DNA of 64,000 nucleotides from positions 26,574 to 90,573 of the forward strand of contig JAUNSV010000005.1 in assembly GCA_030539055.1 (NCBI GenBank), written 5' to 3'. Both the position numbers and the translations under genes were made by a program. The notes beneath the pieces were generated by a model. The model was not told the origin of the DNA. It searched no databases and worked only from the letters and a program-made list of their open reading frames with translations. The DNA is from Eubacteriales bacterium (GTDB lineage: Bacteria > Bacillota > Clostridia > Lachnospirales > Lachnospiraceae). This document shows positions 10,015 through 14,200 of this stretch, one piece after another; position 1 is the first letter of the stretch; each line of letters begins with the position of its first letter.

Positions 10015-10716
10015 TTATTTTTGCCTTTTGTCTATTTTAGTTGATAATTTGGTACCTAGTGTTTGAAATAGTTCTACCAAAATTATCAAAAATATAACTG
10101 CAAGCAGCATTATCAAATATTTATATCTATAATATCCATAATTTATAGCTATTTTGCCAAGTCCCCCACCACCTATTATACCACTCATTGCTGTGTATCC
10201 AAGTATTGTAGTCAAAGCTATAGTCATATTAGATACTAACGAGGGAAGTGCCTCCCCTATCATTACTGTAGTAATAATTTGCATAGGAGATGCACCAAGT
10301 GATTGTGCCATTTCTATAGTATCACTACTCACTTCTCTAATACTACTCTCACATAATCTAGCCACAAATGGAAAAGCAGCAATTGTTAATGGAACAATAG
10401 AAGCTACAGTACCTACAGCTGTGCCTATTATCAATCTAGTAAAAGGGAAAACTAAAATCATCAATATTAAGAATGGTATTGACCTAAGAAGATTGATTAT
10501 AATATTTAACAATTTCATAATCCATTTTGGTAGTGGAGCTATTCCTCTTTCTTCTCCTACTACCAAAATAACACCAAGAGGAAGGCCTATAATGATTGCA
10601 AAAATAGTAGAAAGTAAAGTAACATAAAGTGTTTCCCAAAGAGCAAATGGAAATTGTGATATAAAAATATTTTTTGCTTCTATTATAGTTTCCATATTAA
10701 TATTATTTAACATCAA
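10015..10716 (-). CDS. metI: Methionine ABC transporter permease
   Basis: 233 aa, polytopic, with permease loop IEMAQSLGASPMQII. Operon with metN and metQ. Confidence 0.85.
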   Translation of the reverse strand: MMLNNINMETIIEAKNIFISQFPFALWETLYVTLLSTIFAIIIGLPLGVILVVGEERGIAPLPKWIMKLLNIIINLLRSIPFLILMILVFPFTRLIIGTAVGTVASIVPLTIAAFPFVARLCESSIREVSSDTIEMAQSLGASPMQIITTVMIGEALPSLVSNMTIALTTILGYTAMSGIIGGGGLGKIAINYGYYRYKYLIMLLAVIFLIILVELFQTLGTKLSTKIDKRQK

Positions 10717-11719
10717 TATTTACCTCCTCTATTCTTACATCACCATTTTTAATAAGAAAATTTTTTGCTCTTCCAAGCGTTTCATAGTCTCCTCTAATAC
10801 CTAATAACATTGAACCATAAATATTGCCATTAATTGTTCTTGTGGATGCAGATGCAATATTTGCCTCAATACGCTCCTCCAATGCGAGTTTTGCTATAAG
10901 AGGTGTTTTTGTAGCTTTGTGCCCAGAAAAAACTATACGAATAAAATGTTCGTCCTCTTCTCCTACTACGATTGCATCTTCATTGCCCTCTGGAAATACT
11001 AATTTTTTTGTTGCTTTTTCTTTTGGGTGTGAAAAAACTTCACCTACTTCTCCTACTTCTACAATTGATCCATTATCTAATATAGCAACATGTTTGCATA
11101 TTTGCTCAACTACAGACATTTGATGAGTGATTATAATTATAGTAATACCTAATTTTTCATTTATTTCTTTTAATAATTTTAATATTGATTGAGTAGTTGT
11201 AGGATCTAATGCACTTGTTGCTTCATCACACAATAATACTTTTGGGTTAGTAGCTAGTGCTCTTGCTATAGCAACTCTTTGCTTTTGTCCACCAGATAGT
11301 TGAGATGGAAAAGCTTTTATTTTTTCTTCTAATCCTACTAAAGAAAGTAATTCTTTTGCTTTTTTTTCTGCTTCTTTTTTTGTAACTTTTTCTAAATACA
11401 ATGGAAAGCATACATTTGATAAAACATTTTTTTGCATAAGTAAATTAAAAGATTGAAATATCATTGTGATTTCTCTTCTCTTCTTTCTTAATTCACTTTT
11501 AGATAAAGTTTTAATGTCTACATTATCAATTATAATTTGGCCATCTGTTACTTCCTCTAATCTGTTTATACATCTAATCAAAGTAGATTTTCCAGCTCCA
11601 CTCATACCTATAATGCCAAATATATCTTTGTCGTTAATTGTAAGATTTACATTGTGTAAAGCATCAAAAGATAGGGAGGCAGCATTAAAACTTTTTGTCA
11701 AATTTTTTATTTGAATCAT
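10703..11719 (-). CDS. metN: Methionine ABC transporter ATP-binding protein
   Basis: 338 aa. GMSGAGKST, LSGGQKQRVAIARAL, LLCDEATSALD, plus a C-terminal NIL-type extension. Confidence 0.9.
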   Translation of the reverse strand: MIQIKNLTKSFNAASLSFDALHNVNLTINDKDIFGIIGMSGAGKSTLIRCINRLEEVTDGQIIIDNVDIKTLSKSELRKKRREITMIFQSFNLLMQKNVLSNVCFPLYLEKVTKKEAEKKAKELLSLVGLEEKIKAFPSQLSGGQKQRVAIARALATNPKVLLCDEATSALDPTTTQSILKLLKEINEKLGITIIIITHQMSVVEQICKHVAILDNGSIVEVGEVGEVFSHPKEKATKKLVFPEGNEDAIVVGEEDEHFIRIVFSGHKATKTPLIAKLALEERIEANIASASTRTINGNIYGSMLLGIRGDYETLGRAKNFLIKNGDVRIEEVNIDVK

Positions 11720-11723
11720 TTAT

Positions 11724-12587
11724 TTAACCTTTAATTGGATCTAAAGTTTTTTGTTTTCCACCATATAAACCAAGTGGCTCTACATGTATAGCTCCAACAG
11801 AAACTATATGTGTGTTATTTTCTTTATTAAAATCATCTAAATATGGTAAGTGTTGAAAGAAATTTGCGTCTACTGTGCCATCTTCTACTACATTATTTGG
11901 TATTACATAATCACTATATTCTTGTATATCTAATTTGATATTTTTTTGTGATAAAATTTCTTTTGCTATATTCAAAATTTCTGCGTGTGGAGTAGGTGAA
12001 GCAGCTATAGAAATTGTTTGATTACTTAAAGAATTATAATTGATACTATTATCGAAGCCATCTGTAGGATTATCTACAACAGATACTACTGCTCCATCAT
12101 AAGTAGCTTCTATATATTCTTTTACTTGTTTACTACTTAGTGCAGCTTTTAATGCTTTTATTTTGTCATTATTCTCATTGCCACTTTTTACACATAAGAT
12201 ATTTGAATATTGAGAAGCAGAGCCCTCAATTAATAGTGAATCTTTTGTTGGATTAAGACCAGCTGAAATAGCGTAATTTGAATTAATAACAGCATAATCA
12301 ACATCTTTTAAAATATTTGGTAATTGTGCAGCTTCTACTTCTTTGAATTCAATTTGCTTAGGGTTAGATGCAATATTTAAGATAGTAGATGTAATACTTG
12401 TATCATCTTCCAATTTAATATAACCATTTTTTGCCAATAATAAAAGAGCTCTTGCCTCGTTTGTTGTATCATTTGGTATGGCTATTGTTACCTTTGATGA
12501 AGTAACTCCACTTGTTTTTGCACCACATGCACAAAGTGTGAAGATTAAAACAGATACAATAATAGTTAAACTTAATACTTTTTTCAT
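11724..12587 (-). CDS. metQ: Methionine-binding lipoprotein (NlpA/MetQ family)
   Basis: 287 aa. Signal peptide ending in a Cys-containing lipobox (FTLCACG). First gene of the metQNI operon. Confidence 0.85.
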   Translation of the reverse strand: MKKVLSLTIIVSVLIFTLCACGAKTSGVTSSKVTIAIPNDTTNEARALLLLAKNGYIKLEDDTSITSTILNIASNPKQIEFKEVEAAQLPNILKDVDYAVINSNYAISAGLNPTKDSLLIEGSASQYSNILCVKSGNENNDKIKALKAALSSKQVKEYIEATYDGAVVSVVDNPTDGFDNSINYNSLSNQTISIAASPTPHAEILNIAKEILSQKNIKLDIQEYSDYVIPNNVVEDGTVDANFFQHLPYLDDFNKENNTHIVSVGAIHVEPLGLYGGKQKTLDPIKG

Positions 12588-12610
12588 AATTTTTTTCTCC
12601 TTTGTTTAAT

Positions 12611-12639
12611 AAAAAACCGAATGCTTGAAAGCATTCGGC
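12611..12639 (-). terminator. Intrinsic terminator (attenuator stem 3:4) 24 nt upstream of the metQ ATG
   Basis: Minus strand reads CCGAATGC-TTTCAA-GCATTCGG (12638..12617) followed by T6 (12616..12611). Confidence 0.8.
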
Positions 12640-12683
12640 ATTATTCTTAATTTTTTAATTAATATAATGAATACTTACAAGAC

Positions 12684-12755
12684 TCAAACATAAATTGACA
12701 TACCCATAGCCATGTACATATCCATCATTATGTTTTGTGAAAAGTAATAATTCAT
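12684..12755 (-). CDS. Met-rich leader peptide MNYYFSQNIMMDMYMAMGMSIYV (23 aa), candidate attenuation sensor
   Basis: Hand translation. AAGGAG at 12766..12761, ATG 12755, TGA 12686..12684. 7 of 23 codons are ATG, six of them within ten consecutive codons. Too short for the ORF track. Confidence 0.6.
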   Translation of the reverse strand: MNYYFSQNIMMDMYMAMGMSIYV

Positions 12756-12820
12756 TTCATCTCCTTAATTAATATCTAACAAGACTACTATATTTTTTTA
12801 TAATTGTCAAGCACTTTTTG

Positions 12821-12892
12821 TGACCTATACGAGAGTTGAACTCGTGATTCAGCCTTGAGAGGGCTGCGTCTTAACCCCTTGACCAATAGGCC
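12821..12892 (-). tRNA. tRNA-Glu, anticodon CUC
   Basis: Hand-folded cloverleaf. Acceptor GGCCTAT/ATAGGTC (one G-U). D arm GTC-AAGGGGTTAA-GAC. Anticodon stem CAGCC/GGCTG with loop CT-CTC-AA. 4-nt variable loop AATC. T arm ACGAG-TTCAACT-CTCGT. Discriminator A, no encoded CCA. Same architecture as Bacillus tRNA-Glu. Confidence 0.9.
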
Positions 12893-12906
12893 GTTTAACT
12901 TAGGGA

Positions 12907-12935
12907 ATTATAAAAGAAATGCTTTCGTTTGTCAA
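12907..12935 (-). promoter_or_regulatory. Consensus sigma-A-type promoter for tRNA-Glu
   Basis: Minus strand TTGACA (12935..12930), 17-nt spacer, TATAAT (12912..12907). The -10 ends 14 nt before the tRNA 5' end. Confidence 0.7.
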
Positions 12936-12968
12936 GCCTTAAAAAATTATCAATTTATTTTTTTAATT

Positions 12969-14200
12969 TTATTTTATAATGTCATTCACTATATATACAT
13001 CTTCTCTATCTATTATAGGTATACTAAATATATCTCCATAATTCAAAATAAAGTTATCATCTGTTTTATAAAAATAAATATAATCATATTGCTTGATTGT
13101 TTTTATAAAATCTTCCTTAATTAAATTCTTAGTCCATATATCTTTAGGGTGGTATATTGGATCTCCAAATGAACAAGAACGAAATTTTTTATCAAACATT
13201 TTGAATTTGAATATGCTACCTAGCAAGCCTTGGTCAGCTTGTGCTACTATTAGTATTTTTTTGTTAGCTGGGAAATTTTCCATTATATCAAAATCTTTTT
13301 TATAAATATAATCATCTGAATATAGTATGCTTTTTGGTAAATAATTTACTCCATTTGCAAAATAAATTGATAAACTTAAAGAAAAAACTATAAATAATAA
13401 ACATAACAAAAAAGATATGTTCATTTTTTTATAATTAATAATTATATTTATAAATAAAAAACCTAAAATAAAAAATAGGGAAATTAAAAATATACTACTA
13501 AATCTCCAAACAGAAGATAAATTCACAGCATCCCATTCGCTCATAATAAATAAGTATAATAAAAGAAGTGAAAATGTATATAATATTAAACCCACAATAA
13601 GGCAAATTGAAAATTTAATTATTTTATTTTTATATATTTTTCTTGTAAAAAAAGAAAAAATAGAAAATAATAAAACAAATAAACAAATCCAATTAAAAAA
13701 AGTTAAATATATTTGTTTTGTATTAAAAAACCAATTTGAATAATTTGATAATGCTTCTTTTTGATATTCTAATCCACCGTGTAAAAATAGTATATTAATT
13801 AATTGTTTTATTTTTAATAATACATTTATTTGGGTAGTATTTTCTTTAATAGATATAGGGAGTAATATTTTCCAAGAAATAAAAAATAGTAAGGGTATTA
13901 GAAATACAAATAAAAATTTTTTTAAATTATTTTTTATATTTTTTTTATCAATTTTTTGAATTAATAATAAAACTATAATGCCAAAAATGTATAAACCTAT
14001 TCCAGGTTCTTTCGTTAGTATTAGAGCTATGGCAGATAATATAATATTATAGATTTTAAATTTTGAGTGAATCCTGCAAAATATATTATTATAGCAATAA
14101 AAAATAATGATGCAGGTAGTACTTTGGCAAAAGATTGATTAAAAAATAATGCTAGACTAATTGCTACAATAATAATAACAATATATGGTATGATGAACAT
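12969..14200 (-). pseudogene. Polytopic membrane protein (~410 codons) interrupted by a frameshift near 14035-14100
   Basis: ATG 14200 opens MFIIPYIVIIIVAISLALFF...KSIILYYLP and stops at about 14030. A second frame, open from about 14100, continues ...IYNIILSAIALILTKEPGIGLYIFGIIVLLL... into the listed ORF 12969..13595. No family recognised. Confidence 0.6.

Follow-up and report, generated by a model that had tools for sequence, protein, structure and literature searches.

Between a tRNA-Glu gene and the metQNI genes for a methionine importer, the 64-kb stretch of clostridial DNA analysed here (from contig JAUNSV010000005.1; referred to below as the window) carries a short leader that is probably a ribosome-mediated transcription attenuator, in which a peptide rich in Met codons would sense charged elongator Met-tRNA and control read-through of an intrinsic terminator into metQNI. 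The element most likely switches the importer on when methionine runs short. The leader comprises a short open reading frame (ORF) with its own Shine-Dalgarno (SD) sequence, a cluster of AUG codons, three regions capable of alternative pairing and a terminator immediately upstream of metQ (Table 1). The analysis shows the sequence elements, their folding energies, their uniqueness in the window and the conservation and covariation of equivalent elements at orthologous loci; from these we infer that the ORF is translated, that ribosomes stall at its Met codons and that the outcome responds to methionine.

Reading of the sequence together with the list of ORFs places AAGGAG, the ATG at 12755 and the TGA at 12686..12684 where they had been put in an initial annotation of this DNA. 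Both the SD and the ATG of the leader ORF align with the near-invariant ones of 44 relatives described below. Met accounts for 7 of the 23 codons of the leader peptide and for 6 of the 10 codons from 10 to 19, the composition given by the annotation, and the peptide contains no Cys. In all six frames of the window, no stop-free stretch other than the Met cluster contains 5 or more ATG in 12 codons, and no other 10-codon segment contains 6 ATG; the binomial expectation is approximately 0.0014 such clusters per 128 kb, and the cluster is thus no by-product of base composition. The clustered codon matches the amino acid supplied by the downstream MetQNI importer. A three-codon mini-ORF, ATG AAA TGA (12760-12752, minus strand), directly follows the leader SD in another frame and overlaps the leader start codon; it is probably unused, because there is no spacing after the SD.

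The leader ORF is separated from metQ by an intrinsic terminator, GCCGAATGC-TTTC-AAGCATTCGGT (12639..12616) followed by T6, or GCCGAAUGC-UUUC-AAGCAUUCGGU and U6 in the RNA. A terminator scan confirmed the strong terminator that had been proposed at this place, which is the sole minus-strand terminator-like site in 12300..13200, with shuffled sequences averaging 0.2 sites on both strands. The U tract ends at 12611 and the metQ ATG lies at 12587, so that the gap, originally given as 24 nt, counts 23 nt, the metQ SD included. No promoter-like site was found in these 23 nt by a promoter scan, in agreement with the earlier proposal that metQ has no separate promoter after the terminator. Transcripts running into the leader possibly originate from the tRNA-Glu promoter, a perfect sigma-70 consensus, and no terminator was found by the terminator scan between the tRNA-Glu gene and the leader. 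A TTGACA hexamer at 12811 has, at 17-nt spacing, only TAGTCT (12788..12783) as its best −10 element, and whether the two make up a weak, putative promoter of the leader's own is uncertain; relatives display a clear TTGACA-N17-TATAAT at the position equivalent to this hexamer. Given the perfect tRNA promoter, the lack of a terminator in between and the weakness of the leader's own promoter, the tRNA-Glu transcript may extend through the leader into metQNI, which together would then form its 3′ trailer.

The sequences and positions first given for regions 1, 2 and 3 were confirmed, and folding recovered the pairings among them that had been drawn by hand and found these stronger than stated. The 1:2 pairing comprises 18 bp, with −17.7 kcal/mol as a duplex; it exceeds shuffled sequences (p = 0.003), is better than 99.9% of random 24-mers from the window and constitutes an anti-antiterminator with the regulatory codons in its 5′ strand. 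The 2:3 antiterminator, whose core duplex has −8.9 kcal/mol, uses up the 5′ arm of the terminator, its loop and the first 2 nt of its 3′ arm and is mutually exclusive with the terminator. As hairpins, the three structures are balanced, with −18.6 kcal/mol for 1:2, −14.0 kcal/mol for 2:3 and −14.8 kcal/mol for 3:4. In the global minimum free energy (MFE) fold, region 2 (12679-12664) pairs with the leader start-codon region (12760-12741), which is predicted to be a second means of holding region 2 when no ribosome is present.

The effect of a translating ribosome was modelled by keeping a block from −15 to +12 nt around the first base of the A-site codon unpaired in equilibrium MFE folds of the transcript cut just before region 4. 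Without a ribosome, region 3 is left essentially free, with only 4 bp to the start region, so that the terminator can form. With the A site at Met codon 10, 11, 13 or 19, a 13-16 bp antiterminator forms between regions 2 and 3, whereas with the A site at codon 21 or at the stop codon region 3 is unpaired again. Thus, in the MFE model, the antiterminator appears at 4 of the 6 Met codons and neither without a ribosome nor at the stop codon, which supports the trp/his-type logic suggested for the window by the initial annotation.

On this model, transcription would start either at the promoter of tRNA-Glu or at a weak one belonging to the leader itself, and a ribosome would load at AAGGAG/ATG and trail the RNA polymerase. 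When methionine is plentiful, the ribosome would clear the six AUG codons, reach UGA and overlap region 2; once it has moved past or left, region 1 or the start-codon region would capture region 2. Region 3 would then be free for region 4, the terminator would form and transcription would stop 23 nt before metQ. With Met-tRNA in short supply, the ribosome would stall with AUG in the A site, covering region 1, and in this state region 2 would pair with newly made region 3, sequester the 5′ arm of the terminator and permit read-through into metQNI.

Table 1. Features of the metQNI leader and its surroundings in the window (positions in the 64-kb stretch).
Feature	Position	Strand	Evidence and remarks
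Leader SD, AAGGAG	12766..12761	minus	5 nt before ATG; aligns with the conserved AGGAGA of relatives
Leader ORF, MNYYFSQNIMMDMYMAMGMSIYV, 23 codons + TGA	12755..12684	minus	Sequence reading and ORF list
Met-codon cluster, codons 10-19 (M M D M Y M A M G M)	12728..12699	minus	Sequence reading
Region 1, AUGAUGGAUAUGUACAUGGCUA, five of the six internal Met codons	12728..12707	minus	Duplex and hairpin folding
Region 2, UCUUGUAAGUAUUCAUUAU, switch strand, 2 nt after the stop codon	12682..12664	minus	Pairs with region 1, the start-codon region or region 3
Region 3, antiterminator 3′ strand, AAUAAU-GCC-GAAUGCUU-U-CAAG	12645..12623	minus	Antiterminator hairpin 12683..12622, −14.0 kcal/mol
Intrinsic terminator, 10-bp stem (5 G-C pairs), loop UUUC, U6	12639..12611	minus	Terminator scan; −14.8 kcal/mol
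metQ SD, AAAGGAG	12603..12597	minus	Sequence reading; within the 23-nt gap
metQ, substrate-binding NlpA/MetQ lipoprotein	12587..11724	minus	PF03180, E = 6.6e-79; NCBI name MetQ/NlpA family
metN, ABC ATPase with C-terminal NIL domain	11719..10703	minus	ABC_tran and NIL matches
metI, permease	10716..10015	minus	BPD_transp_1, PF00528
tRNA-Glu promoter, TTGACA-17-TATAAT, perfect sigma-70 consensus (12/12 matches)	12935..12907	minus	Promoter scan
tRNA-Glu(CUC) gene, directly upstream	12892..12820	minus	ARAGORN; Rfam RF00005, 60.5 bits
−35-like TTGACA, 45 nt upstream of leader SD	12811..12806	minus	Sequence reading; not reported by the promoter scan

The MetQ of the window, searched against one genome for each GTDB species, matched 80 metQ loci (60-72% identity), nearly all of them in metagenome-assembled genomes of uncultured Clostridia (Oscillospiraceae, Acutalibacteraceae, Ruminococcus, Lachnospiraceae, Christensenellaceae and others). 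Approximately 72 of the 80 loci have enough upstream DNA for a leader to be judged, and approximately 50 of these, spanning 33-63% GC, share the layout of an SD, a short Met-rich and usually Cys-rich ORF and an intrinsic terminator, a favourable outcome of the test for conserved short ORFs with clustered ATG codons that the initial annotation had proposed. An ORF scan identified 47 of the leaders, a covariance model added 3, and 2 more were found in contigs of ~60% GC. In the 47 relatives, a conserved SD (AGGAGA) precedes the ATG of a short ORF, 36 codons long in the median (e.g., MKKLGFIANMMMEMCMWTCRMCMAF..., MKKQQSVMMMAMAMDMRMCMSFKHD), and the strong intrinsic terminator lies 12-46 nt past the stop codon. 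Over the 46 distinct leaders, Met makes up 19% and Cys 10% of the residues. ATG-density scans of the related loci at two thresholds yielded no convincing Met-rich leader ORF other than those that head these met operons; the remaining matches, all at the looser threshold, are not Met/Cys-cluster leaders.

Because Cys codons are interspersed with the Met codons of most relatives (MMMEMCMWTCRMCM...), the family probably senses both sulfur amino acids, Met and Cys; the copy in the window, having no Cys codon, would report Met only. Within the codon cluster, AUGUACAU of the window is a perfect palindrome and AUGUGCAU of the relatives is self-complementary if G-U pairs are allowed (e.g., L046:28-51, L063:2759-2782), so that the repeated M-C-M or M-Y-M units fold into local hairpins. 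Besides sensing, selection on RNA structure, such as a pause hairpin, may contribute to the retention of the Cys or Tyr codons. The leader is not limited to the importer, since at one locus (L008:844-3855) a Met/Cys leader and a second small ORF head an operon encoding a pyridoxal phosphate (PLP)-dependent enzyme of Cys/Met metabolism (PF01053, 427 aa), an energy-coupling factor (ECF) S component (PF07155) and metQ. The two ~60%-GC contigs encode apparent tandem-domain MetQ homologues (L084:1501-2826, L085:1501-2784), likewise preceded by a Met/Cys leader and a terminator.

The same leaders bear on the possibility that the AUG triplets form a repeat array for a TRAP-like RNA-binding protein, activated by Met or S-adenosylmethionine (SAM), whose binding decides between antiterminator and terminator. 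Indeed, the triplets follow one another every 3 or 6 nt along ~30 nt and overlap the strand that competes for region 2, and since AUG has no synonym, codon identity and RNA motif are inseparable by sequence alone. Yet the cluster is preceded, at a fixed distance, by a strong SD and a start codon, an ATG that the family alignment shows to be nearly invariant, and the frame is open from this ATG through the cluster in every member. The 46 distinct leaders contain 316 ATG triplets in the frame of the ORF against 27 and 5 in the other frames and write Cys as both TGC (125) and TGT (44). Furthermore, AUG number and spacing vary freely among members, unlike in a fixed binding array, and no candidate gene for a binding protein is linked to the locus, which makes this explanation very unlikely. 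TRAP-type attenuators contain 9-11 (G/U)AG repeats, 2-3 nt apart, do not require translation and are accompanied by a trap-like gene in the genome. Assignment to this type was rejected, as the AUG triplets considered here, 0 or 3 nt apart, follow an SD and ATG and keep strictly to a single frame.

Alternatively, the leader ORF could be translated and control the terminator but sense general translation stress or an antibiotic, as do the ermCL and ABCF leaders. A short ORF followed by alternative hairpins and a terminator is the layout of drug-responsive attenuators, too, and in the masking model any slowing of the ribosome on region 1 has the same structural effect. We consider this reading just as improbable, given that the content of Met (and Cys) is the only strongly conserved property of the peptide while other residues vary, that the controlled genes are always methionine importers, with one case of a Cys/Met PLP enzyme, and that no resistance gene is located downstream.

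Conservation of the pairings was assessed by counting pairs in a plain MAFFT alignment of 44 relatives' leaders and the window, not fitted to structure. For the 3:4 terminator, 82% of the cells are paired, compared with 37-59% when slid, 63 cells are changed on both sides, and the covariation is 0.383 compared with 0.226 in shuffles. For the 2:3 antiterminator, 81% of the cells are paired, compared with 27-69% when slid; compensatory changes are present at 11 of the 13 pairs, and none of 500 shuffles reaches either the observed number of double-change cells or the covariation score. The 1:2 helix has 65% of its cells paired, compared with 32-49% when slid, and its covariation score is reached by 1 of 500 shuffles. 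Accordingly, the test for covarying stems in related leaders that the annotation had proposed came out in its favour, the antiterminator and the terminator both displaying compensatory changes. Region 2 of the relatives corresponds to the "ISDMFS" segment, UCCGAUAUGUUCUCC. Paired with its own terminator, region 2 has a mean energy of −13.3 kcal/mol, compared with −10.8 kcal/mol for non-cognate terminators (permutation p < 1e-4), a difference that is significant overall even with region 3 cut too short for the ISDMFS subfamily in this comparison.

The best upstream partner of region 2 varies among the relatives. In ~14 loci and in the window, it is the Met cluster (e.g., UGAUGGAGAUGUGCAUG); many other loci favour the SD of the leader (AGGAGAAC; e.g., L012:2561-2575 with L012:2665-2681), because region 2 contains the anti-SD UUCUCC. 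By pairing with the SD or the start region, region 2 would thus close the translation start of any leader RNA whose translation is finished or has not begun. Most relatives have region 2 within the ORF, 10-45 nt before the stop codon, whereas its place in the window, L028 and L044 is at the stop codon or directly behind it.

This conservation of RNA structure also concerns a third explanation, namely, that the ORF encodes a functional Met-rich micropeptide, serving as an oxidant sink or metal binder, and that the hairpin is an ordinary, partly leaky intergenic terminator. Protective peptides of this kind exist, such as a periplasmic Met-rich peptide that scavenges hypochlorite (PMC4436054), and some gene callers annotate members of the family as hypothetical proteins. 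The explanation is even less credible than the two preceding ones: the leader peptide has no signal peptide, no conserved sequence beyond Met and Cys, and no matching Pfam or NCBIfam family; its best-conserved "residues" (ISDMFS) are an RNA strand that is complementary to and covaries with the terminator; metQ has no promoter of its own according to the scan; and the element is always located before methionine genes. Finally, coincidence is the least likely explanation and is strongly disfavoured; on this reading, the hairpin would do no more than end the tRNA-Glu transcription unit, and the Met-rich ORF would have arisen by chance from AT-rich sequence. In its favour, the tRNA gene, 180 nt upstream, has a perfect promoter and is followed by no other terminator, and AU-rich pairings are easy to find in a genome of 27% G+C (R2:R3 p = 0.04-0.08). 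Against it, only ~0.0014 such ATG clusters would be expected per window, the layout recurs before orthologous metQ in ~50 genomes of 33-63% G+C, mostly without an adjoining tRNA gene, and coincidence would leave metQNI without any promoter.

Whether the leader in the window belongs to the same family as those of the relatives was judged from its position, alignment and model scores. It is located directly upstream of an orthologous metQ, as in the relatives, and MAFFT aligns it over its full length, with ATGATGGATATGTACATGG corresponding to ATGATGGAGATGTGCATGTG of the relatives and with the core motif ATGATGGA(T/G)ATGT(A/G)CATG common to both. The relatives' interspersed Cys codons (median of 4 Cys) have no counterpart in the window; one relative, L070 (MMEMYMW), shares in part the M-Y-M replacement. 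A covariance model (model R1) built without the window has the leader, at full length, as its top match in the window (25.2 bits, E ~6e-5). The second small ORF found in most relatives (ORF2, ..LVRANFRFGRM[C]; see below) is absent from the window, where 23 nt are available, and also from the clear family members L006, L044, L043, L047 and L056, and hence is not obligatory. A metagenome scan with the Met pattern of the window, ATGATGGAYATGTAYATGNNNATGNNNATG, matched only three (ATGTAT)n microsatellite contigs.

Several observations weigh against the attenuator reading of the window or against its link to the family. The score of 25.2 bits compares with 33.5-139 bits for confirmed members, and the metQ SD plus ATGAAAAA alone reaches 20.9 bits with the same model; in a search with a sequence-only family profile (nhmmer), the Met cluster is the sole match in the window and is not significant (E = 0.18). 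No close relative of the window's genome was found in the collections, its MetQ being a singleton with the next sequence ~70% identical, which puts covariation of this exact copy beyond reach. In the window, the core R2:R3 duplex is only marginally above chance in shuffles (p = 0.04-0.08), and across the relatives the sequence support for the 1:2 helix is modest. In the masking model, a ribosome at Met codon 15 or 17 leaves the start-codon region exposed to capture region 2, and antitermination at these codons would need a trailing ribosome.

Masking of the whole family (47 leaders) gave upstream pairing of the terminator arm of 0.42 with no ribosome, 0.45 with a Met stall and 0.37 at the stop codon (p = 0.11-0.14); many relatives form the antiterminator without a ribosome and lose it only when a ribosome reaches the end. 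Since the antiterminator is the default in many relatives, the family may work, as far as the masking model goes, more as a two-state switch than the copy in the window does. A further objection concerns the signal itself, because methionine starvation also limits the charging of initiator tRNA and could reduce translation of the leader. An arrangement in which the untranslated leader does not terminate would tolerate low initiator charging; the simulation for the family hints at such an arrangement in many relatives, whereas the copy in the window folds into a terminator-permissive form when free of ribosomes. Judged by sequence, family membership of the leader in the window is borderline: it is an AT-rich member that has diverged strongly or else an analogue that arose by convergence, and the functional reading as a Met-codon attenuator is unchanged either way.

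Known regulators of methionine genes are SAM riboswitches, T-boxes and proteins such as MetJ and MtaR, the usual controllers in Firmicutes being the S-box (SAM-I) riboswitch and the Met-specific T-box. At the gathering threshold, Rfam 15 matched only the tRNA in the whole 64 kb, and neither SAM riboswitches, including the S-box (RF00162), nor the T-box (RF00230) gave a match in 12500..12950 at E ≤ 10; S-box and T-box were likewise not found in 20 related loci. Their absence from the leader, noted earlier from inspection, thus stands. S-box and Met T-box elements occupy the same 5′ leader position in metNIQ-type operons and have the same terminator/antiterminator output, but they sense SAM or uncharged tRNA directly through RNA structure, without translation, whereas the reading of the leader in the window needs translation. 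The best sub-threshold match in Rfam is the trpB motif (RF04312), at 26.7 bits compared with a gathering threshold of 59, which aligns with the R1:R2 hairpin and the terminator of the window. This motif, found in Firmicutes before amino-acid transporters, could be a classic attenuator according to its authors (Breaker lab 2024, PMC11109978) and, like the window, has a hairpin with a possible antiterminator 3′ shoulder, a linker and an intrinsic terminator. Membership was rejected on the score, the likeness being confined to the generic layout.

The enterobacterial attenuators (trpL, hisL, pheL, leuL, thrL and ilvL) consist of an SD-led short ORF with a run of codons for the regulated amino acid and of exclusive 1:2, 2:3 and 3:4 hairpins, the last of which is the intrinsic terminator before the first structural gene, with the stop codon near region 2. 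The ORF, the codon run and the three exclusive hairpins are common to trpL/hisL-type leaders and to the leader in the window, the energy balance of which resembles that of trp. By contrast, the leader in the window has AUG as its regulatory codon, targets an ABC importer and not a biosynthetic operon, and stems from a host among the low-GC Clostridia. To our knowledge, methionine is missing among the amino acids sensed by leader-peptide attenuation. Conceptually, sensing through Met codons poses a difficulty, because AUG also serves as the start codon and a shortage of methionine hits both initiation and elongation; for the same reason, the signal in the window is entangled with initiation. 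A natural and widespread leader of this type would therefore inform how cells separate the two demands on Met-tRNA.

Comparative surveys report no Met-specific leader (PMC2965389, PMC1262725, PMC11109978). In Firmicutes, a His leader upstream of hisS/hisZ (Naville & Gautheret 2010, PMC2965389) and Gram-positive His attenuators (PMC9413887) have been described; they share the phylum and mechanism with the leader in the window and stand in the usual place of a T-box or riboswitch, but concern another amino acid and have no sequence relationship to it, and these two papers (PMC2965389, PMC9413887) report no Met or Met/Cys leader. Actinobacterial cys operons have leaders with Cys codons, without a conserved intrinsic terminator hairpin (PMC1262725), and mycobacterial polycysteine upstream ORFs (uORFs) are reported to be leaderless (10.1101/834739); uORFs for branched-chain amino acids have also been reported (PMC10272879). 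The actinobacterial Cys leaders are sulfur-amino-acid-enriched uORFs that control sulfur-metabolism genes; most relatives of the window likewise contain Cys codons, with Cys at 10% of residues. The actinobacterial and mycobacterial leaders contain runs of Cys only, whereas the leader in the window has an SD, no Cys and a clear intrinsic terminator.

The leaders of the relatives fall under no Rfam family, leader peptides and ORF2 peptides have no matching family in Pfam or NCBIfam, and the leader ORFs of relatives, where called at all, are annotated as "hypothetical protein." No description of a Met leader-peptide attenuator was found in Rfam 15, Pfam, NCBIfam or the openly searchable full-text literature, a scope that excludes subscription-only papers; this agrees with the statement in the initial annotation of being aware of no such attenuator. 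The mechanism is already known, and the Met specificity, the dual Met/Cys content of the relatives and the leader family itself appear to be new.

In approximately 38 of the 47 relatives, a second SD-led small ORF (ORF2) of ~18 residues is present just after the terminator (e.g., L012:2792-2857, L004:2867-2950, L014:2856-2912). Its peptide follows the pattern x-x-x-[YF]-F-E-x-L-V-R-A-N-F-R-F-G-R-M and ends after Arg-Met or continues with Cys and a few residues, the final CGA-ATG being constant. The peptide itself looks selected, because its codons differ synonymously between loci (Leu CTC/TTA/CTG, Arg AGA/CGG, Ala GCG/GCA/GCC). Possible roles of ORF2 are that of a nascent-peptide stalling sensor and that of a second stage of attenuation.

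On balance, and with less assurance than for the window alone, we favour the view that the leader is the first Met-specific ribosome-mediated attenuator and represents a widespread class in gut and rumen Clostridia. Such a class would read Met-tRNA, and mostly also Cys-tRNA, via an AUG/UGY-rich peptide and replace the S-box or T-box before MetQNI and at least one Met/Cys biosynthetic operon, in most members in series with an 18-residue uORF ending in Arg-Met-(Cys)-stop. If this is true, with the series-coupled uORF as a nascent-peptide stalling sensor, the two would make up a two-stage sulfur amino-acid switch. Apart from the apparent dual Met/Cys read-out inside a single peptide, the class would explain the control of methionine uptake in many uncultured gut Clostridia without an S-box at the metQ locus, and its compact size of ~150 nt makes it a potential methionine-responsive switch. 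The claim is directly testable with covariance model R1 and the list of loci.

Three further features of the related loci deserve mention. The top-scoring MetQ homologues (P0002-P0047), to which those of L084 and L085 belong, have 380-445 aa and HMMER scores well above the self-match scale of the 287-aa protein, consistent with a duplicated NlpA domain. Six loci (L027, L043, L047, L054, L056 and L069) combine a Clostridia-type metQ and leader with bins labelled as Bacteroidota taxa (Bacteroidaceae, Bacteroidales, Bacteroides stercoris, Alistipes communis and Barnesiella intestinihominis), which looks more like mis-binned contigs than true occurrence. In the subfamily of leader peptides ending in ...FAA or ...CAA (L014:2745-2790, L039, L078, L006, L008, L012 and L055), region 2 and the terminator are separated by a small hairpin with the stop codon in its loop and with a stem that differs between loci (CCGC-UUAAGUUUUU-GCGG, CCGCAUCG-UAG-CGAUGCGG and UUGUGC-CGCUUAAAUUUU-GCACAA), suggesting that the structure around the stop codon is conserved in this subfamily.

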